Assembly (NCBI GenBank): GCA_014686905.1
Contig: GCA_014686905.1_4093.1
Origin: a phage
DNA length: 64,000 nt
Strand: one strand, 5' to 3'
Below, one piece after another: positions 1,219-60,303 of the stretch; position 1 is the first letter of the stretch; the number at the start of each line of letters is the position of its first letter. Position numbers and translations under genes: made by a program. Below the pieces are notes generated by a model. The model did not search any database. It was given only the letters and a program-made list of their open reading frames with translations, and had not been told where the DNA came from.

Positions 1219-1455
1219 ATGAAACTATCTTTTATACGATTAGCTGAATTCTTCGGTACTGATGTAATTACTTTACAACAAATTGCAGATAATACTTCAT
1301 TAAGTACACAAGAAGTACTTGACTTAGATGTAATTCAGTGCGATAATACTTCCATCGATTTCAAAGAAGGTCTTGTCGAAAAAGATAAGATTAAAGCTAA
1401 GATTAATGGTGCTGGGCGGGTTCAGTACTGGAAAGGAGTATTAAGTAATGTTTGA
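1219..1455 (+). CDS. hypothetical protein (inside repeat-flanked cassette)
   Basis: ORF with SD AGAGG upstream; overlaps start of next ORF. Confidence 0.5.
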   Translation: MKLSFIRLAEFFGTDVITLQQIADNTSLSTQEVLDLDVIQCDNTSIDFKEGLVEKDKIKAKINGAGRVQYWKGVLSNV

Positions 1456-2566
1456 ACAGTATTATTTAAATGAAGATGGTGAAAAAGTTTATTTTCATGA
1501 AGAACTTGGTATGCGTTTTGAATGGATGAAGCCTGAAGATATAAAAAGGGTTTCAAAAGGACTCACTGCTAAGGATCATGTTGATGACATAGAAGCAAAA
1601 TTAAAAAACAAAGATATTGACAATATTACTATTATTGGATTATCAGTTAAATCATCACGTGAGTTTGGTAAAAACGGAAATAGTAATAACAATTTACTGA
1701 TTATGTATAATGGGGTATTGTATGATAATTATAAAATAACTGGTTTAAAAACAAAGCTTGAAAAAATAACAAACAATAAATTCAAGCCATCATTTACCTA
1801 TACAGATGAAAATTATTATTACTATGTAACCAAATTGGGTTCTCTTGAGGAAAGAGGATGCTATATATATGAAAATGAACATTTAGACAATGGGATAATG
1901 TCATATATTAAATTCACATATTCCGATGGATTTACACAACCACGAAGAATAAATGATATAATTACAAAAACATCAATGAACGTTAGATATTTTATAACAC
2001 CTGAAATGCGTGAAACAATTGCTAACACACGCTGTAATGAACTAGGATATACATTAAAAGAAGTTTACAAGAAATCAAATGGTCGTTATTATGTAAAATA
2101 TATATGTGATAAAGGACACGAGTGTAATCAAGACTATTATGCGTTTACTAGTAAACAAGCACAAAAGTGTGGATGCTGTTCCCAATTAGAAACACACTCA
2201 TTTGGTCATAATGATTGTAAAGAGTTTTTGAGAGGAATGTTTGTTACTGAAAGAGAGAAAACATTTCCTGATTTAAAAAATAAATCAAAACTTCCATATG
2301 ATTTTTATATTCGTGATATTAATACGTTATTTGAATATGATGGTAGTAATCACTTTGAAGAACGTGAATCAGGATGGGGAAACGGACTTATGAGGAAAAA
2401 ACACGATAAAATCAAAACAGAATACGCAATAAAAAATGGATATAACTTCATTCGTATTGCGTATTATGAAGACCATATTGGAGCATTGAAATCTTTCCTT
2501 AAACTCATTGAAGAGAATCCAGGAAAGCAAATCGTGCAGATCTATGGTGAAGTACAAATTATCTAA
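1448..2566 (+). CDS. putative homing-endonuclease-like protein with C-terminal PD-(D/E)XK (Vsr/DUF559-like) nuclease motif
   Basis: C-terminal PYDFYI...LFEYDGSNHF...GYNFIRI resembles the D...E(x)DG..H...G(x)(x)(x)R pattern of Vsr/DUF559-type nucleases; Cys/His cluster upstream; AT-rich. Confidence 0.5.
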   Translation: MFEQYYLNEDGEKVYFHEELGMRFEWMKPEDIKRVSKGLTAKDHVDDIEAKLKNKDIDNITIIGLSVKSSREFGKNGNSNNNLLIMYNGVLYDNYKITGLKTKLEKITNNKFKPSFTYTDENYYYYVTKLGSLEERGCYIYENEHLDNGIMSYIKFTYSDGFTQPRRINDIITKTSMNVRYFITPEMRETIANTRCNELGYTLKEVYKKSNGRYYVKYICDKGHECNQDYYAFTSKQAQKCGCCSQLETHSFGHNDCKEFLRGMFVTEREKTFPDLKNKSKLPYDFYIRDINTLFEYDGSNHFEERESGWGNGLMRKKHDKIKTEYAIKNGYNFIRIAYYEDHIGALKSFLKLIEENPGKQIVQIYGEVQII

Positions 2567-2570
2567 AACA

Positions 2571-2618
2571 AAAGGGTTGACTTCGGTCAGCCCTTTTTGC
2601 TATAATTATTTCATCAAC
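2571..2618 (+). terminator. composite hairpin terminator plus promoter; right copy of 48-bp direct repeat
   Basis: Identical to 1157-1204. Confidence 0.6.
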
Positions 2619-2634
2619 TGATGAGGATAACGAA

Positions 2635-3405
2635 ATGACCAGAGAAGCACGTAGCATTCAAATCCAGAAAAACTTCAACTCCATGATGGTTGCTCTTGAG
2701 TGTTTGCTCGACGATAGCAGTACTGTAAAAAGTATGGTTGTCAGTGGTGCTCCTGGTGTTGGTAAGACTTACACCCTGTCTAAACGCCTCCAGAAAGCTC
2801 ATGACGCAGCAGAATGGAACGTAGCTACTATCAGTGGTAAGATGACTACACTGGCTCTGTACGAAGTTCTGTACAAGAATCGTCACAGCACCAACGTGTT
2901 AGTACTGGATGATATGGACAGCATCTTTGATTCTGAAGACGGTATGAACCTGCTCAAAGCTGTTTTGGATAGTGGTAAGCGTACTGTATCTTATATGACT
3001 AGCTCTAAGTACTTGAGCACTAACGGCATTCCTAATAGCTTTGATTTTAATGGTCGCATCGTATTCATTACTAACAAAGATTTAGCGTTAGATGCTAAAG
3101 CTAAAACTAAAATGTCTGCTCATTATGCTGCTCTTATGTCTCGTTCTGTGTACGTGGATTTACAGATTCAGACTAAAAGTGATATCATGATTCATATTGA
3201 AAATGTAATGACTAAGACTAATATTCTTGCATCTAAAGGTGTTAACAGTAACGGCAGTAAAGCAATTCTGAACTGGATGTTAAAACATGAAGATAATCTT
3301 CGTGCACCATCCCTGCGTATGCCTTTGTTGATTTCAGCAGTATATAACAACAATCCGTATGATTGGGAAGAACAATGTGAAAACTTGTTCCTTGAGAAAA
3401 TCTAA
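2635..3405 (+). CDS. P-loop NTPase (AAA-like ATPase)
   Basis: Walker A GAPGVGKT and Walker B-like VLVLDDMD in translation. Confidence 0.7.
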   Translation: MTREARSIQIQKNFNSMMVALECLLDDSSTVKSMVVSGAPGVGKTYTLSKRLQKAHDAAEWNVATISGKMTTLALYEVLYKNRHSTNVLVLDDMDSIFDSEDGMNLLKAVLDSGKRTVSYMTSSKYLSTNGIPNSFDFNGRIVFITNKDLALDAKAKTKMSAHYAALMSRSVYVDLQIQTKSDIMIHIENVMTKTNILASKGVNSNGSKAILNWMLKHEDNLRAPSLRMPLLISAVYNNNPYDWEEQCENLFLEKI

Positions 3406-3472
3406 TTACATATGTTGACAGTACTACCATAGTGTAGTACTATAACTTAATATTCACCACCGGAGATACGAT

Positions 3473-3814
3473 ATGCTTGAGTTTTTTAATTCAGATACAA
3501 TGCTTGGTATCACGCTAATTTACATGTTTGTATTTTTGTGTTATCATTCAATTGTAATTAGTCTGTGGTATTTTAAAAGGAAAATTGTTTTTAAATTGTA
3601 TTCGGATGATAATGTAGTCTTAGTTTTATATAGTATTATCCAAGGTGGGTTTATTTTATTTGGTGTGATGACATATGCGATTTACATGTTACAAATTGAT
3701 AATACACCACACATTACACAATATCTTGTGTTTTCAGGTCTAATCGTGTGGTTGTTGGTGTGTAGCATATACTTTATTATTAAAGCTCGTGATAGAATTA
3801 AAGGGGATTTCTAA
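3473..3814 (+). CDS. small membrane protein, tandem paralog 1 of 8
   Basis: About 3 hydrophobic helices; WYFKRKIVFKLY motif; clear paralog of 3814-4152; stop/start overlap. Confidence 0.6.
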   Translation: MLEFFNSDTMLGITLIYMFVFLCYHSIVISLWYFKRKIVFKLYSDDNVVLVLYSIIQGGFILFGVMTYAIYMLQIDNTPHITQYLVFSGLIVWLLVCSIYFIIKARDRIKGDF

Positions 3815-4152
3815 TGTTAACATTCTTTAAGTCAGATACAATGCTTAGTATTACTTTGATTTATCTTTTTGGTTTTTTCTTTTATCATGCACTGGTTGTA
3901 GTACTATGGTATTTTAAAAAGAAAATTGTTTTTAAACTGTATCCAGTGAGGAATTCATCACTAGTTCTTTACACAATTGTTCAAGGTTTGTTTGCAATTG
4001 TTGGTCTTATGGCACACTTAATTTATTGTGCTAATCCTCACTTGAACTCAATCTCACAATATATTGTATTCTTTGGGTTGTTCATTTGGTTAGGTGTATA
4101 CTTAATCCATCTCATTATTCATGGTAGAGATAAAATTCGCGGAGACTTCTAA
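3814..4152 (+). CDS. small membrane protein, tandem paralog 2 of 8
   Basis: Near-identical architecture to 3473-3814 (MLxFFxSDTML...WYFKKKIVFKLY...RDxIxGDF). Confidence 0.6.
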   Translation: MLTFFKSDTMLSITLIYLFGFFFYHALVVVLWYFKKKIVFKLYPVRNSSLVLYTIVQGLFAIVGLMAHLIYCANPHLNSISQYIVFFGLFIWLGVYLIHLIIHGRDKIRGDF

Positions 4153-4499
4153 TGTTTGAAGCTTATCTTGAGTTTTTAAGGAGTAGTCCAGTTGCACATT
4201 CACTTGCAGGGATTATTCTAACAACTTATGTATCATTTTGGGTAGTTATGTTTCTAGGATGGTATTTTAAACGACAATTCTATAAACGTAATGGTGAAGA
4301 TTTTATGAATTCTGTCATTAATCAATCGTTGTTTGCATCAACATTGATTGCATGTATTGTAGCAACACTCACAGGAAAGGTACTACCAGCTTTTTCCGCA
4401 GTTTACGGCACACTTGGGATGATATGTTTAACTTTTATATTGACCATTAAAATTTGTTGTGTTATGATTGAACTTCGAAATAAGATACCGGAGGAATGA
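4152..4499 (+). CDS. small membrane protein, tandem paralog 3 of 8
   Basis: Hydrophobic; WYFKRQFYKR motif; ATGA overlap with neighbour. Confidence 0.55.
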   Translation: MFEAYLEFLRSSPVAHSLAGIILTTYVSFWVVMFLGWYFKRQFYKRNGEDFMNSVINQSLFASTLIACIVATLTGKVLPAFSAVYGTLGMICLTFILTIKICCVMIELRNKIPEE

Positions 4500-4834
4500 T
4501 GGAGTACTTTATTGATTTACTGCCGTGGTATATGAAAGTTAGTACCATGTACTATATTATTAGTGCTGGATTCTACTTTCTGATGTGGTTCTTTAAACGA
4601 CCAATTTCAGTATTCATCGCTGATAACATGCTGCAATTAAAATTACACGCATGGTTTGGTCTGGCGATGATTATGCCTATTATTCACTACTCAATGATTA
4701 GTAGAGGTTTCCGTTCTAATGGTGAACCAATTGTATTAGTATTCTATTGGGGTTCAACTATTGCATATGTAAGTTTGTTGTTGTTCCCAGTCGTTCATAA
4801 GTTACGTGCTAAAGTTCCTGATGCGAGGTACTAA
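4496..4834 (+). CDS. small membrane protein, tandem paralog 4 of 8
   Basis: Hydrophobic; WFFKRP motif; overlaps neighbours. Confidence 0.55.
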   Translation: MMEYFIDLLPWYMKVSTMYYIISAGFYFLMWFFKRPISVFIADNMLQLKLHAWFGLAMIMPIIHYSMISRGFRSNGEPIVLVFYWGSTIAYVSLLLFPVVHKLRAKVPDARY

Positions 4835-5148
4835 TGGATATAGTAACATTGATTTACACGTTGTATTCATTCTATTTCATTATGTGTTGGGTTGGATTTT
4901 TATTTGTACTCAAGATGTTTGATTATGTTGAAAAACAGATAAAAGAATTTTGTATTCCTTTTATCGGTTCAACCATTATTAGTGTTTCTTGTGTGTATTT
5001 TTTGGTTTTTGATCCACCAGATAACACTGCAATGATTGACTTGATGTTACTACCAACAACTGTTACTTTTTTATGTAGTCTGATGCCGCCGATTAGCCGT
5101 GGACTAACAGAATTTAGACGCAATCAAAAGCGTAAACGAGGGATGTAA
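4834..5148 (+). CDS. small membrane protein, tandem paralog 5 of 8
   Basis: Hydrophobic helices; same size class; abutting neighbours. Confidence 0.5.
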   Translation: MDIVTLIYTLYSFYFIMCWVGFLFVLKMFDYVEKQIKEFCIPFIGSTIISVSCVYFLVFDPPDNTAMIDLMLLPTTVTFLCSLMPPISRGLTEFRRNQKRKRGM

Positions 5149-5516
5149 TGGAAATTGCTCTTATTATCTTAACTGCTATGTTGTTTATTAGTACTGTGGT
5201 TATAATTGGTAAATTCTTTTGTGTATCATTTTTAGAAACGGTATACGATGAAATTGCTGATGATTATGAACTACAAGCCGGATTTTTCATTACGTATTGG
5301 CTTAGTTTATTTTGTCTAGTCATTGCTTGGATTTTACATATCTTTAAATGGGGTATGGTAGACGGTGATCCTATTATGGCAATTATTGTTCTAGTGTTTG
5401 GTATCCTTGGTGGTGCAGTGCATAATCTAATGGTTATCTGGCAAACTGTTCAATATGTTTTGGTTCCCTATTTCGAAAAGATGCACAGTACAATTAAAAA
5501 ACGTAAACGAGGTTAG
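5148..5516 (+). CDS. small membrane protein, tandem paralog 6 of 8
   Basis: Hydrophobic helices; basic C-terminus KKRKRG like neighbour. Confidence 0.5.
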   Translation: MEIALIILTAMLFISTVVIIGKFFCVSFLETVYDEIADDYELQAGFFITYWLSLFCLVIAWILHIFKWGMVDGDPIMAIIVLVFGILGGAVHNLMVIWQTVQYVLVPYFEKMHSTIKKRKRG

Positions 5517-5517
5517 T

Positions 5518-5880
5518 ATGAACGGGATAGAATTATCTTTCGTTGGTCAATTACTAGTAATGGCGTATACATTTATCTTCTCACTGAATGCATTCGTGTG
5601 CATTGGGAAGTACTTCCATAAGCGACCATTATCAAATATATATGATGTAATCCAAAAGAGATATAGTCCAGCATATACTGTGTTGGGTACAGTATTCAAT
5701 TTTGGTTTTATTGTATTAATAATTGGACTGTTCACATCCTCTTTGAATACAATAACCTTCGGTCTTATGATATGTTCATTGGTATTAGCCGTAATTATAT
5801 GTTGTTTAGTACTGCACCTTGTGGTACTATTGTATATAAAGATCTCTGAAATCCACCAACGTTTGGGTATGAGGAAATAA
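5518..5880 (+). CDS. small membrane protein, tandem paralog 7 of 8
   Basis: Start moved to ATG at 5518 (MNGIELSF) just after previous stop; hydrophobic. Confidence 0.5.
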   Translation: MNGIELSFVGQLLVMAYTFIFSLNAFVCIGKYFHKRPLSNIYDVIQKRYSPAYTVLGTVFNFGFIVLIIGLFTSSLNTITFGLMICSLVLAVIICCLVLHLVVLLYIKISEIHQRLGMRK

Positions 5881-5881
5881 T

Positions 5882-6253
5882 ATGAGTTACCGTGAGATAT
5901 TTTCCATTATTTCAATTATTATGTTCAGTACTGGAACACTGGTATGGTTATTATACTTCTTCTGTATTAATCCAGTGTATAATATGTTATGTAATATTAA
6001 ATCAAGTGCCGGATATATCACTTTTATGGTCTTTATGGGATATTATTGTCTAAGCATTTTAGGTGTTGTTTTGGTTGTTATATTTGATGTGGGACCAAAT
6101 AGTGATGGTATGGAAATACATGAATTAATAACCATGTTTGGATGTATGATACCAACAGCACTACTGTTTGTAGCTACTGGTAGTGGATTGATAAAATTAT
6201 ATAATTATTTAAAATCCATTCATAATTCCATTCATAATAAGCGTATGTCATAA
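5882..6253 (+). CDS. small membrane protein, tandem paralog 8 of 8
   Basis: Hydrophobic helices; followed by inverted repeat CCAGTACT...AGTACTGG. Confidence 0.5.
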   Translation: MSYREIFSIISIIMFSTGTLVWLLYFFCINPVYNMLCNIKSSAGYITFMVFMGYYCLSILGVVLVVIFDVGPNSDGMEIHELITMFGCMIPTALLFVATGSGLIKLYNYLKSIHNSIHNKRMS

Positions 6254-6294
6254 TAAAAATCCAGTACTATTAAGTACTGGATTAATAAGGAGTT

Positions 6295-6957
6295 ATGATG
6301 AAAACAAAATTAGGTTTGTTTTATAAAAATTATTTCGTTAAACAGCGTAAATTTATAAAAAAATATTTCTCTGGTGAGAAGTCTAGTCCTATAATTTTTA
6401 AAAGACCAAGTTATAATACTTACTTAGCTGGTGCTAAACAGTCTAAGAAATTTATTACTCTTTTAAATAAAAACAAAATTAAAGCTTCTTATGTTGAAAC
6501 GAGAAGAAACTCATCAATAACTCCTGGTGATTTTATTGAGTACGGATGTTTCAATATTAAGTACAATGATAATACATACTTTATGGATATTGATTGTAAT
6601 ACATCCAATCTTTTTAACATTGTAGTAAATCCATTAAAACAATATAATGTTTATGGTGATTCTATTATCAAATTAATCAAAAACAAAGATAGCTTTGATT
6701 TTGAAATAAATGTTTTAGATGATAATTTTGACGAAGTACCAGTAAACCCTGAAATCTGTGATATTTTAAACAGTTTAAAAGGTAGTACCTACAATATATC
6801 ATCTGATTTAATGTTTCAGTACTCATTAATCCATAAAGATATTGAAAAGTATATTGAATGCTCCAAAATTTTGAATTATCTTTACGATGAATTTAAAAAG
6901 AGTTCTAAAATAACTGCATACACTTTGTACAATATTCCTAAAATGGTGAATCTTTGA
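6295..6957 (+). CDS. hypothetical lysine-rich protein
   Basis: ORF with SD AAGGAG upstream; converges on the minus-strand array. Confidence 0.55.
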   Translation: MMKTKLGLFYKNYFVKQRKFIKKYFSGEKSSPIIFKRPSYNTYLAGAKQSKKFITLLNKNKIKASYVETRRNSSITPGDFIEYGCFNIKYNDNTYFMDIDCNTSNLFNIVVNPLKQYNVYGDSIIKLIKNKDSFDFEINVLDDNFDEVPVNPEICDILNSLKGSTYNISSDLMFQYSLIHKDIEKYIECSKILNYLYDEFKKSSKITAYTLYNIPKMVNL

Positions 6958-8090
6958 CAAATACAGTACTGGCAACTCCACCGTCTGTAATATATTGTCC
7001 AGTACTGTAAATTTGTATACCATCGGTTAAGTAAGTTCTGTATAAAGTTGCTGTAACATATACGTTATTCATATTCATCTCTATTGGTAGTACACATTTG
7101 GTATAGGCCGACACATCTGTTTGTGTACCTATACCCAATTGACCTGCGTTATCGCCTGTGTTATAACCAGTTGCGTAAACACCTAATGAAGTTATAATAT
7201 GATTAGAAAAATATGAATAACCCACACTGCTTCTTATTATATCACCTGGTGCTTGTGTTGTTTGTCTTAACGAAATATATGTTTGTGATGTAGAACCATT
7301 TGCTAACTGACCAAAGTACTGTCCACCACCATGATATGCAAATAATTTATTAGTACTATTATTACTTGCTATAGCAAAAGCGAAGTAACTTGAGTTTGTT
7401 GTATAATCTTTCACCGTATAGGTATTAGTTATTTGAGAACATAACGTGTACTTTGAATATAACGTCATGTCGGTTGTACCTACGCCTGATATTGCACCAG
7501 TATAATACAATCTCCCATCGGTTCCAATAAATCCTTGCATAAGAAAATTTGCCAGTATTTTGGATGGTGTTACTCCAGTAGGTACTGTTCCTTGTACAAA
7601 TGATGAAAGTGAATCGGTACTTCTACCATTTCCCAGTTGTCCATAACTACCATAACCAGTATTCCATATCGTGTTGTCTGTACATAATACGCTTAATGCA
7701 CCTGCACTAACTGCAATTTGTTTTATTGTTTTTCCTAGGGCTGTTATTCTATCAAACACTATCTTTGCAGAAGCCCACGTAGTAGACTTATCAGTTGATA
7801 AACCCAATGATGCACCATTCCCAGCGTACCACATCGTATTATCTTTCTTTTTTATTAAAGTTGACTCATACCCGCACCCATATATCTTCTACGTTTGTAT
7901 TGCATAAAACCCATTGGGTCTGTGTTATAATATTACCTATACCCATTTGCCCAAACTCTTGAGAGCCTCTACTGTATAGTGTCCCGTCTGACATAAGGGC
8001 AAAAACTGTCGTATCAGATGAAGATATTTTGGTAACAGTAGGGGGTAGGTTCTTTTTTGATGATGTGATAATTCTTCCAAAGGGTAGCAT
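6938..8090 (-). pseudogene. RCC1-like repeat paralog (MLPFGRI N-tag), interrupted by frameshift near 7866-7888
   Basis: N-terminal piece (MLPFGRI..., stop 7866-7868) and C-terminal piece (open from 7888) are in different frames and together match the length of intact paralogs; G-rich junction with a nearby A-run. Confidence 0.5.
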
Positions 8091-8162
8091 TGTATCCTCC
8101 AAATGTAAATCGTTATTATATTTAGGACAAAAAAATGCCAGTACAAGGCACTGGCATAAAAT

Positions 8163-9332
8163 CTAAGCAGAAGGCATATCCTTCATTTTAATAAATGAAA
8201 ATTGTGTACCAGTATTTGTGGTTTGATCAGTAAAATATGAATTACTACCAGCCCAGTACAATTCATTATTAACTATACAATATATAACAGAACTCGAACT
8301 CTGTGAATACACACGACTTATATTTGATGGTTCTACTCCAGTACTGAACTGAACCGAACCCAACTGTGAACTTGGTATCACATCAGTTGGTCTACCTAAA
8401 CCATTAACACCAGCCCCACCACCACATGTATATACCCCAGTACTATCAGTTGATATATTAACATAACCATTTCCGGCATTTTCAAATAGTATTTCACTGG
8501 GAACAACACCAAATCCAGTAAGATCTATTTTCCTGAATGTAGTGTAAACAGTAGAACCACCAACACCTCTTCCACCATAATCATTAGAACCAGCCATATA
8601 GATACTATATCCAGAACTTCCTAAACATAATAACTGTACGTTGTCATATAATATTTGCATAGATATAACGTTATCAGGAATACTCAATACCGTAAAAGTA
8701 GTTAAAGAAGAACTTCCAATATTACTACCAACCGATGTTCCACATCTGTAGTACTTACCGCCTTTTATATAATGGAACGATGAACCGCCTAACTTATGTG
8801 CTCCTATTGTACTTACCCCAGTATCTATAAGAATGGGAGATACAACTTTGTTATTAACACCTAACTCAGATCTACTGTTCATACCGAACCCATATAAACG
8901 ACCATCTAACATCAATATTAGTGTACTACCGGAAGTACCCGCTGACGTAAATTCTATATTCTTTATTTGCGACACGTCAATACCTACAAATAATGAAGTT
9001 ACTTCAGTCCAGTTAACATATGAACCACTAGCCCCAAAATATCCACCCATGTATAGACCTGCACAATATAATTTATTATCAACAGTCTTTATTAATGTAC
9101 CGGATACACACGCCCAAAAATCATCAACTTCATAGGGTACATGTACCCAACCACCTAATACATCACTAGCATCCCCTGTACCTAATTTATAGTTCGAACC
9201 AGAACCACGCATGTACATATTCCCTGTACTATAAAGTAATCCGACATGTAATTGACTACCATCCAATTTCTTTATTTCAGGAAGAGTTGGTTTAATATTT
9301 CCGTACTTTAACATTCTTCCAAAAGGTAACAT
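8163..9332 (-). CDS. RCC1-like repeat protein with conserved N-terminal tag MLPFGRMLKYGN
   Basis: Starts MLPFGRMLKYGNI after SD GGAGG; Gly/Ser/Thr/Asn-rich body with repeated GxxxxGQLG-type motifs. Confidence 0.7.
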   Translation of the reverse strand: MLPFGRMLKYGNIKPTLPEIKKLDGSQLHVGLLYSTGNMYMRGSGSNYKLGTGDASDVLGGWVHVPYEVDDFWACVSGTLIKTVDNKLYCAGLYMGGYFGASGSYVNWTEVTSLFVGIDVSQIKNIEFTSAGTSGSTLILMLDGRLYGFGMNSRSELGVNNKVVSPILIDTGVSTIGAHKLGGSSFHYIKGGKYYRCGTSVGSNIGSSSLTTFTVLSIPDNVISMQILYDNVQLLCLGSSGYSIYMAGSNDYGGRGVGGSTVYTTFRKIDLTGFGVVPSEILFENAGNGYVNISTDSTGVYTCGGGAGVNGLGRPTDVIPSSQLGSVQFSTGVEPSNISRVYSQSSSSVIYCIVNNELYWAGSNSYFTDQTTNTGTQFSFIKMKDMPSA

Positions 9333-41691: not shown

Positions 41692-41913
41692 ATGACTACA
41701 ATGACTTGCATTTACGCTTCCAATCTTCTGAATGATGCGGCCTTTAATGTTGATTCAGAATATCAATGTTATCGGGATGAAAATAAAAAAGTTTTTGTAG
41801 TTGATAATAATGGTTTCCATATTGAATTACAATCCGGTTTCACTGGTGTTGATGGTAAATCAGTATGGGGCGTACAGGATGATAACGGTACATATCATTT
41901 TAAACGTAATTAA
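41692..41913 (+). CDS. hypothetical early protein
   Basis: Start moved to MTTMTCIYAS after SD AAGGAA; leader hairpin AGGGGGAAATGGTTCTCCCT. Confidence 0.55.
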   Translation: MTTMTCIYASNLLNDAAFNVDSEYQCYRDENKKVFVVDNNGFHIELQSGFTGVDGKSVWGVQDDNGTYHFKRN

Positions 41914-41997
41914 GTATTGACAAAGTATCTTAGTACTGTATAATAGTTTACATCAAGGGGAGAATAGTTCTCCCCGATACTAAAAGGAAACAAAATT

Positions 41998-42270
41998 ATG
42001 TCCAGCTACTCCGCTACTATGATCATTAAAGATATGAACGGTAATCCTACTTCTGCTGGTGGATCATTTGGAAACATTAATTTAGATGGTCGGTTATCCA
42101 TGCAATCAGCCATCGATGCAGCGAAAGAAGTTTTTAAGAATGAATGTACTGTTAGTAAGCTGGATTATATGGGATTCGCTATCGAGAAAACTAATCGTTT
42201 TGTGAACTACAAAAATCCACTGATGATTGATACTAACCTGAAAGCTAACGAAGTGGGGTACTTATTATGA
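41998..42270 (+). CDS. hypothetical early protein
   Basis: TTGACA promoter, leader hairpin GGGGAGAATAGTTCTCCCC, SD AAGGAAAC. Confidence 0.6.
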   Translation: MSSYSATMIIKDMNGNPTSAGGSFGNINLDGRLSMQSAIDAAKEVFKNECTVSKLDYMGFAIEKTNRFVNYKNPLMIDTNLKANEVGYLL

Positions 42271-42458
42271 CAGTAGAAGAAGTTAAAAAAGTACTGGCAG
42301 TACTACGCTATCATAATCATTGCAAGGTGAAGAATGATCCTGATTATGTTGATTCATCCCTGGAGGAAGACACATTAAACGCAATAAGCCATATGCAAAC
42401 ATTAGCAAAGCGTATGACCGAAAAGAATAGACCGGACTATATCGGAAATAAAATTTAA
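42267..42458 (+). CDS. hypothetical small protein
   Basis: ATGA overlap with upstream gene. Confidence 0.5.
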   Translation: MTVEEVKKVLAVLRYHNHCKVKNDPDYVDSSLEEDTLNAISHMQTLAKRMTEKNRPDYIGNKI

Positions 42459-42544
42459 AAAGTACTTGCATTGTAGTTAGATTAACGTATAATGTTTTAC
42501 ATAGAGCGGGGGAATAGTTCTCCCGCCAGTCCAGGAGATACACC

Positions 42545-42808
42545 ATGAACACTATCGAAATCACTATCAATGCACACGTATACGACAACGTAGTACTGCA
42601 AACTACTATGACCGCTAATGATACCAGTACTTTGCGGAATACTGTTATTAGTGCCGTATGTGCCGCTATCGGTGATGTCGCCCTGGAAAATGCAGAACAC
42701 ATCAACGACGGTTTCACTATGTGCAAACGTGATAACGCAAAACATATCATCGTAGAAGGTTACGGCGGTGTAGAATATAATCTTTATATGAAAAAAGTAC
42801 TTGCATAA
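42545..42808 (+). CDS. hypothetical early protein
   Basis: Promoter, leader hairpin GCGGGGGAATAGTTCTCCCGCC, SD AGGAGA. Confidence 0.6.
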   Translation: MNTIEITINAHVYDNVVLQTTMTANDTSTLRNTVISAVCAAIGDVALENAEHINDGFTMCKRDNAKHIIVEGYGGVEYNLYMKKVLA

Positions 42809-42875
42809 TAACTAAAACAAAGTATAATGTTTTGCATAGGGGGAGATATCCTCCCCCACTAAAAGGAGTAATAAA

Positions 42876-60092: not shown

Positions 60093-60303
60093 AGAGCCGG
60101 AAGTGGCATATTGCTTTAGTGTGAAAGGTTTTGAATTCATGATGGATTCTATTTTGAAGGATACATATTTGGTTCAGATTGCAGTTGCAGATAATACAGA
60201 TAATGCATTACAGCGAGTATTGAATATATACGAGAGGACGAGTCGAAGGCTTTGTGCAATGAAAAGGATTGAAGAAATCAAGGTTTCTAGGCTGAATAAA
60301 TAG
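60079..60303 (+). CDS. hypothetical small protein
   Basis: 74-aa ORF; followed by GC-rich island. Confidence 0.4.
   Translation: MITFEEPEVAYCFSVKGFEFMMDSILKDTYLVQIAVADNTDNALQRVLNIYERTSRRLCAMKRIEEIKVSRLNK

Follow-up and report, generated by a model that had tools for sequence, protein, structure and literature searches.

Positions 3,473 to 6,253 of a 64,000-nucleotide (nt) stretch of phage DNA (contig GCA_014686905.1_4093.1, assembly GCA_014686905.1; hereafter the window) hold a tandem array of small membrane protein genes, here termed m1 to m8. The open reading frame (ORF) listing, together with a script, gave eight plus-strand ORFs of 104 to 123 amino acids (aa), in agreement with an earlier note on this DNA that had described eight abutting or overlapping small genes. 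Positions 3000 to 6800 of the window matched Escherichia phage SP27 over their full length at 98.6% identity (megablast), and further Asteriusvirus jumbo phages of ~350 kb, among them 121Q, G17, and JP4, at 96 to 98%. All genes under this match carry the label hypothetical protein.

Layout and predicted topology of the array

The first two genes, m1 (3473 to 3814; 113 aa, phrog_19454) and m2 (3814 to 4152; 112 aa), are recent duplicates and form positional family F1. They are followed by m3 (4152 to 4499; 115 aa, family F3, phrog_19046), the most central member in profile comparisons, and by m4 (4499 to 4834; family F4, phrog_27396), whose ORF can begin at 4496 (112 aa) and for which the second ATG at 4499, annotated as the start in G17, is the most likely start, giving 111 aa. 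Basic tails close m5 (4834 to 5148; 104 aa, family F5, phrog_33258; RRNQKRKRGM) and m6 (5148 to 5516; 122 aa, family F6, phrog_26405; KKRKRG). The mechanically called ORF of m7 begins at 5455; the ATG at 5518 has a ribosome-binding site and is the annotated start in relatives (G17), so that m7 spans 5518 to 5880 (120 aa, family F7). The last gene, m8, lies at 5882 to 6253 (123 aa, family F8, phrog_27618).

Neighboring genes are joined by five 1-nt overlaps of the TAATG/TGATG type and two 1-nt spacers, and this tight translational coupling from m1 to m8 points to balanced co-expression. The Shine-Dalgarno sequence of each downstream gene sits within the last codons of the gene upstream, where GGAG or GAGG is read as GD, RG, or PEE. 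Because the signal of the next gene overlaps these codons, the C-terminal "motif" of the proteins is partly constrained at the RNA level. The 3' ends of array genes also share short DNA repeats (3776 to 3818, 4114 to 4156, 5126 to 5141, and 5497 to 5512) that do two things at once, specifying a tail that is basic or of the "GDF" kind and supplying the following gene with its ribosome-binding site. With their overlapping protein and translation signals, these junction repeats are a likely substrate for unequal crossing-over, which they could mediate.

Kyte-Doolittle hydropathy placed three transmembrane (TM)-like segments in each of m1 to m8, those corresponding to TM1 and TM2 of m4 being only weakly hydrophobic, and topology prediction likewise supported the roughly three hydrophobic helices per protein that had been proposed. 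Exactly three segments were found in 47 of 57 small array ORFs. Summed over these 47 members, lysine and arginine residues numbered 16 in the N-terminus, 125 in loop 1, 29 in loop 2, and 242 in the C-terminus, a distribution which, under the positive-inside rule, indicates an N-out/C-in orientation. The array proteins are thus predicted to lie N-out/C-in in the inner membrane. Members share an architecture of 100 to 130 aa, three TM segments in this orientation, an aromatic-basic motif after TM1, and a basic tail. An AlphaFold2 model of m3 from a 16-sequence alignment was all-helical and of moderate confidence (pLDDT 73), with helices at residues 13 to 38, 55 to 74, and 79 to 110.

The aromatic-basic motif had been described as a WYFK(R/K)-type loop in every member. 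It is literal in m1 to m4 (WYFKRK, WYFKKK, WYFKRQ, and WFFKRP) and nearly so in m7 (KYFHKR); the description does not extend to m5 (FLFVLK), m6 (KFFCVS), and m8 (YFFCIN), where the motif is degenerate. Phenylalanine is its sole invariant residue across the eight proteins.

Relatedness, distribution, and evolution of the family

By BLAST and Smith-Waterman comparison, m1 and m2 (56% identity, E 5e-40) were the sole clear pair among the eight, and their proposed status as duplicates held. All other pairs gave shuffle z-scores of 0 to 4, so that pairwise alignment, which had been suggested as a check on the relatedness of the members, upheld it for m1 and m2 and was weak for the rest. In PHROGs, m1 to m8 likewise fall into separate families with no assigned function and with faint cross-matches. 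Orthologue-enriched profiles were required to go further, and homologous loci were gathered from phages A4, JNE01, Turkey5, Munch, RaK2, GAP32, Serratia BF, and Xanthomonas XbC2.

All-against-all BLAST of these loci resolved positional orthologue groups whose order agrees between Asteriusvirus and RaK2, with identities of only 25 to 67% and numerous cross-group matches at 1e-3 to 1e-7. Profile-profile alignment with hhalign linked F3 to F4 (P 2e-10, 105 columns) and F5 (P 1e-6), and F6 to F7 (P 3e-8) and F8 (P 1e-5, 106 columns). F3, F5, F6, F7, and F8 were each linked to the GAP32/BF/XbC2 group (P 1e-7 to 6e-5), and the weakest link was that of F1, to F3 (P 1e-4, 40 columns). The best of 36 reversed-template controls reached P 0.016. 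Cross-family blastp and hmmsearch matches agreed with the hhalign links, and the family profile matched exactly m1 to m8 among the 214 ORFs of the window. Since these links lie far above the reversed controls, m1 to m8 are diverged paralogues and, judged by their profiles, all eight array genes are one diverged family. The view of the locus as a tandem array of related members is thereby sustained: TM helices are predicted throughout, and the similarity among members exceeds that expected from composition.

Further members lie outside the array. Gp207 to gp209 of 121Q are proteins of 112 to 114 aa with three TM segments and the tails RSNIPEK, RDNLPER, and RKNMPNR. Their mini-array, just beyond the window (41830 to 42865 of locus L039), is located 6.6 kb upstream of the ATPase gene that precedes the main array and just downstream of a gene for a gp0.7-like protein kinase, and similar singletons were found upstream in 6 of 12 jumbo contigs. 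Adding gp207 to gp209 to the array brings the family to at least 11 members per genome.

An exhaustive hidden Markov model search of 1.84 billion cluster representatives returned 33 proteins at E <= 1e-3, of 56 to 129 aa, each best matching array members of RaK2-like phages. Among these clusters there were no relatives from bacteria or from other phages, nor any larger protein in which the unit is embedded. A word-indexed homologue search gave 16 close relatives, none with a Pfam domain, and a run at a higher E-value added nothing. The one match labeled E. coli was a phage genome inside a bacterial assembly (a 348-kb contig). A relative in phi92, suggested by a "Phi92_gp233" note in the ph0011 record, was sought by tblastn, which found none. 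At the level of sequence, the family is restricted to RaK2-like jumbo phages. These comprise Asteriusvirus, Alcyoneusvirus, Mimasvirus, and Eneladusvirus; they are considered for therapy, and more than 80% of their genes have no assigned function.

Pfam and PADLOC scans of the members gave no informative match, PHROG function labels were uninformative, and no solved-structure relative of the family was found. PHROGs 19454, 19046, 27396, 33258, 26405, 27618, 16874, 13405, and 19792 correspond to these proteins and their orthologues, and the GenBank record of GAP32 already notes "3 transmembrane domains" or "membrane protein (3 TM)" for its members. In the literature searched there was no description of the common origin, of the clade-wide array linked to an ATPase gene, or of the early-promoter context, and there were no functional or transcript data for array genes. 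The nine PHROG families, which have no assigned function, thus merge into one clade-specific family of early-type membrane proteins. With eight genes in the array and three more outside it, this family accounts for ~1% of the genome; it occurs throughout the clade and shows unusual plasticity.

This plasticity was evident at several levels. Copy number varied from four to nine array genes per phage. The m1/m2 duplication was present in the window, 121Q, G17, SP27, and ph0011 and absent from PBECO4, slurp01, Turkey3, A4, and JNE01; other lineages had duplications of their own (JNE01_4/5, RaK2_2/3, and GAP32_1/2), and one metagenomic contig lacked m8. Divergence was mosaic gene by gene, m8 being 100% identical to its counterpart in G17 and 62% identical to that in Turkey3. 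Among Asteriusvirus isolates, ratios of nonsynonymous to synonymous substitution (dN/dS, Nei-Gojobori) were 0.1 to 0.48 for array genes and 0.03 to 0.04 for the adjacent ATPase gene; the array genes are therefore under purifying selection that is 5 to 10 times more relaxed than that on the ATPase. Together with the shared orthologue order in Asteriusvirus and RaK2, these ratios mark the ORFs as genuine coding genes. Within orthologue groups, mean pairwise identity was 0.48 to 0.49 in TM1 and loop 1 and 0.32 to 0.37 in TM2, loop 2, and TM3.

The ATPase neighbor and predicted early expression

Directly upstream of the array, at 2635 to 3405 on the plus strand, lies a gene for a 256-aa NrdC.10-like P-loop/AAA ATPase (phrog_1250) with AAA-type Pfam matches. 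It is ~38% identical over its full length to NrdC.10 of T4 and RB69, and a sequence search of the PDB gave generic P-loop matches alone (mS29, Cdc6, and RFC; E >= 0.065). In each RaK2-like phage examined (the window and nine isolate loci), the ATPase gene is followed by four to nine family genes, and the two abut without a gap in GAP32, BF, XbC2, Munch, and A4. A scan of IMG/VR anchored on the ATPase found the array immediately 3' of it in 12 of 12 jumbo contigs (345 to 378 kb, ATPase at least 45% identical) and after none of the more distant ATPases (0 of 8 loci). The ATPase locus of RB69, Vibrio VP-1, and PA5oct was without an array. The coupling to this upstream gene, the restriction to one clade, and the members outside the array are three points that the earlier note had missed. 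A "Rosetta stone" idea, in which a TM domain is fused to T4-type NrdC.10, was dropped: the N-terminal extension of these proteins is soluble and so provides no fusion evidence for a membrane link.

The constant position of the array is one argument that its products are subunits of one hetero-oligomeric inner-membrane complex, working with or assembled by the ATPase and serving, for example, as an anchor, scaffold, or channel for takeover, replication, or persistent infection. Consistent with such a complex, the ATPase precedes the array in all 12 jumbo contigs and all isolates examined, often without a gap, translational coupling suggests balanced co-expression, the F1 to F8 order is held between Asteriusvirus and RaK2, and the most conserved parts of the proteins, the loop after TM1 and the tail, are cytoplasmic. 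The evolutionary record runs the other way. Copy number ranges from four to nine with lineage-specific duplications and losses, and recombination has exchanged single genes while leaving their neighbors in place. The ATPase occurs as two alleles that share 58% identity, and these are found freely paired with the three array types, in four combinations; T4-type phages carry the ATPase without an array, and three family members lie 6.6 kb from the ATPase in another operon. We regard a complex of this kind as possible, on the unlikely side. A bolder version, in which 8 to 11 paralogues would assemble combinatorially into an inner-membrane structure specific to RaK2-like phages and loaded or driven by the NrdC.10-like ATPase, appears improbable; it would be an undescribed phage membrane machinery, such as an infection-site scaffold or gated channel supporting the slow, persistent carrier-state infections reported for Asteriusvirus, and its components would not be exclusion factors.

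Immediately upstream of the ATPase gene is a 372-aa HNH/homing-endonuclease-like gene (1448 to 2566, plus strand; phrog_559). In GAP32, BF, 121Q, and JNE01 this position is likewise taken by an HNH or other endonuclease gene, and segE adjoins nrdC.10 in T-even phages. Homing-driven co-conversion may explain the local mosaicism, including the two ATPase alleles within Asteriusvirus.

A sigma-70-like promoter (TTGACA-17-TACTAT) lies at 3415 to 3443 on the plus strand, 30 nt before m1. Its -35 TTGAC and its -10 element are kept, as TTGAC-17-TAnnAT, in nine phages with variable flanking bases, even in JNE01 and Turkey5, whose array proteins are only ~30 to 40% identical. A second sigma-70-like promoter with an extended -10 (TTGACT-18-TATAAT), upstream of the ATPase gene, is overlapped by a hairpin with a T-run (2570 to 2606, plus strand), and G17 has an annotated terminator at the corresponding position. 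The operon is closed by a hairpin with an 11-bp stem (6258 to 6283), annotated as a terminator in G17, with its T-run on the minus strand. Hairpins with an AGTACT palindrome recur in the promoter spacer before m1 (3421 to 3441), within m7 (5807 to 5829), and after m8 (6258 to 6283), and may serve as a common element in regulation or processing.

The T4-type late-promoter core TATAAATA did not occur on either strand of the 64-kb window, against an expectation of 15.8 +/- 4.4. ATAAATA occurred twice (60296, plus strand; 61383, minus strand), against 48 +/- 7 expected, the copy at 60296 being the nearest to the array; neither sequence was found within 54 kb of it. Such strong avoidance of the late core in an AT-rich genome suggests that it is a functional motif, selected against across the whole 64-kb region. 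In 121Q, the genes found upstream of the array on the same strand include those for a gp0.7-like kinase and the sigma factor of the phage, and the homologous region of phage CBB was predicted to be an early/host-takeover region rich in RpoD-like promoters (PMC5259590). From the promoter and this context, we infer that the array is probably expressed early in infection.

Early expression would also suit a role in host takeover or antidefense. In that case every paralogue would have its own protein target in the host inner membrane and would inhibit it by binding; candidate targets include transporters, proteases, division proteins, and abortive-infection effectors that act at the membrane. The early-type promoter, the location among takeover genes including those for the sigma factor and the gp0.7-like kinase, and the diversification and variable copy number all accord with it, as does PHROGs, which files three family groups, labeled membrane protein, under "moron, auxiliary metabolic gene and host takeover". 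The proteins nevertheless show no similarity to known inhibitors, the PADLOC and Pfam scans were empty, and by sequence alone this role is indistinguishable from one in exclusion. We consider it unlikely.

The same promoter data bear on lysis. In a holin, antiholin, or lysis-timing set, paralogues resembling class I holins would permeabilize the membrane or tune the SAR-type endolysin of the clade. In size, number of TM segments (three), predicted N-out/C-in topology, and strongly basic C-terminal tail, the proteins conform to the class I description. No T holin or RI antiholin is reported for RaK2 (PMC3622015), the clade endolysin has an N-terminal TM domain (PMC5259590), and Asteriusvirus phages are overrepresented in persistent infections, with lysis control among the mechanisms discussed (10.1101/2024.12.31.630880). 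However, the array has a conserved sigma-70-type promoter in a region devoid of the late-promoter core, and it lies in a predicted early region far from the endolysin gene (gp532 of 121Q, compared with gp224 to gp232 for the array). Neither a late-promoter signal nor linkage to endolysin or spanin genes was found, the neighbors being the ATPase, homing endonuclease, and RCC1-like genes. None of 53 members matched a Pfam or PHROG holin family, fEgEco12 is said to have an annotated holin (PMC13070987) while its array genes are labeled hypothetical, and 8 to 11 holin paralogues would be unprecedented. The earlier note had raised exclusion, immunity, and lysis timing as candidate roles. The conserved sigma-70-type promoter, early-region location, lack of a late core, and lack of a neighboring endolysin gene shift the balance among them: they disfavor a role in holin function or lysis timing, which we hold to be improbable, and fit an early role in the envelope.

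Downstream of the array, a 220-aa protein (6295 to 6957, plus strand; phrog_34359) has a counterpart in JNE01 at 32% identity; in A4, RaK2, GAP32, BF, and XbC2, a DUF1190 protein ending in SFGG is found at or near the array end instead. From 6938 to 7834 (minus strand) onward there is a convergent block of RCC1-repeat paralogues, another expanded family beside the array; in related phages its genes carry the annotation DNA condensation protein, regulator of chromosome condensation, or HERC1. Mimasvirus and Eneladusvirus arrays are interrupted by a conserved soluble protein of 254 to 266 aa (phrog_27654) with no Pfam match (7479 to 8243 of locus L007, 7133 to 7933 of L008, and 8402 to 9184 of L009), followed by a one-TM protein of ~95 aa; neither occurs in the window.

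Candidate functions and known systems

Taken together, the locus is very probably a translationally coupled operon of an Asteriusvirus jumbo phage, directly behind the NrdC.10-like ATPase gene in a predicted early region with sigma-70-like promoters. It encodes eight diverged paralogues of one three-TM protein of ~110 to 120 aa, predicted to have its N-terminus in the periplasm and, on the cytoplasmic side, a basic tail and a basic loop following TM1. The paralogues belong to a RaK2-like-specific family evolving by duplication, loss, and gene-by-gene recombination.

For its function, we tentatively favor independently acting, early inner-membrane envelope factors of the exclusion or immunity type. 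Early in infection the proteins would enter the inner membrane of the host, where they would work largely independently as protective or exclusion factors of the envelope, like T4 Imm or P22 SieA. The paralogues would differ in the membrane-level threat that they block or neutralize, such as the entry of DNA from a superinfecting phage, or an effector of the host or of a competitor that acts on the membrane. The better-conserved TM1 and cytoplasmic loop would provide insertion or oligomerization, and the more variable hairpin of TM2, periplasmic loop, and TM3 would provide specificity. The early-type expression signals support this reading. So do birth-and-death and mosaic evolution, relaxed dN/dS, the lower conservation of TM2, loop 2, and TM3, and the reassortment of ATPase and array, a pattern expected of independently acting arms-race genes.

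Several observations weigh against it. Neither in sequence nor in fold was a likeness found to Imm, Sp, SieA/SieB, HK97 gp15, or any other characterized protein; the sole signal in Pfam, a SieB match of 2 of the 53 members at E 0.055, was judged noise. No array gene had dN/dS above 1, and the difference in conservation between regions of the protein is modest. The conserved order of positional orthologues across genera and the tight coupling fit non-redundant subunits of one complex equally well, and an exclusion role does not account for the invariable position behind the ATPase gene.

If the proteins do act in exclusion or immunity, they would bear on cocktail design and phage-phage competition; an ATPase-linked membrane complex would be new jumbo-phage cell biology. 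The array proteins might also explain the tendency of this clade to persist in cultures.

Among known systems, class I holins of the lambda S105 type are alike in size (~105 to 120 aa), three TM segments, N-out/C-in topology, and basic cytoplasmic C-terminus, features predicted for the array proteins. Unlike the array, with its early-type promoter, eight tandem copies, and no adjacent lysis gene, they are late genes beside the endolysin gene, usually in one or two copies. Imm and Sp, small inner-membrane proteins of the large virulent myovirus T4, are expressed early from host-type promoters, are non-essential, and are encoded in variable genome regions; by promoter, context, and topology prediction, the array proteins are also small, early, and located in the inner membrane. 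Imm differs in being an 83-aa, two-TM protein encoded by a single gene, compared with 8 to 11 three-TM paralogues that share no sequence or fold similarity with it. P22 SieA and HK97 gp15, small proteins with several TM segments in the inner membrane, target the DNA entry step of other phages, and their specificity resides in membrane-embedded parts. The array proteins are likewise predicted to be small, multi-TM, and inserted in the inner membrane, whereas SieA and gp15 are encoded by single prophage genes. In contrast to the single family described here, PHROG and GenBank entries split these proteins into nine unrelated groups with no assigned function. Arrays of small accessory membrane proteins in the plastic early regions of large virulent phages are, as a kind, known.

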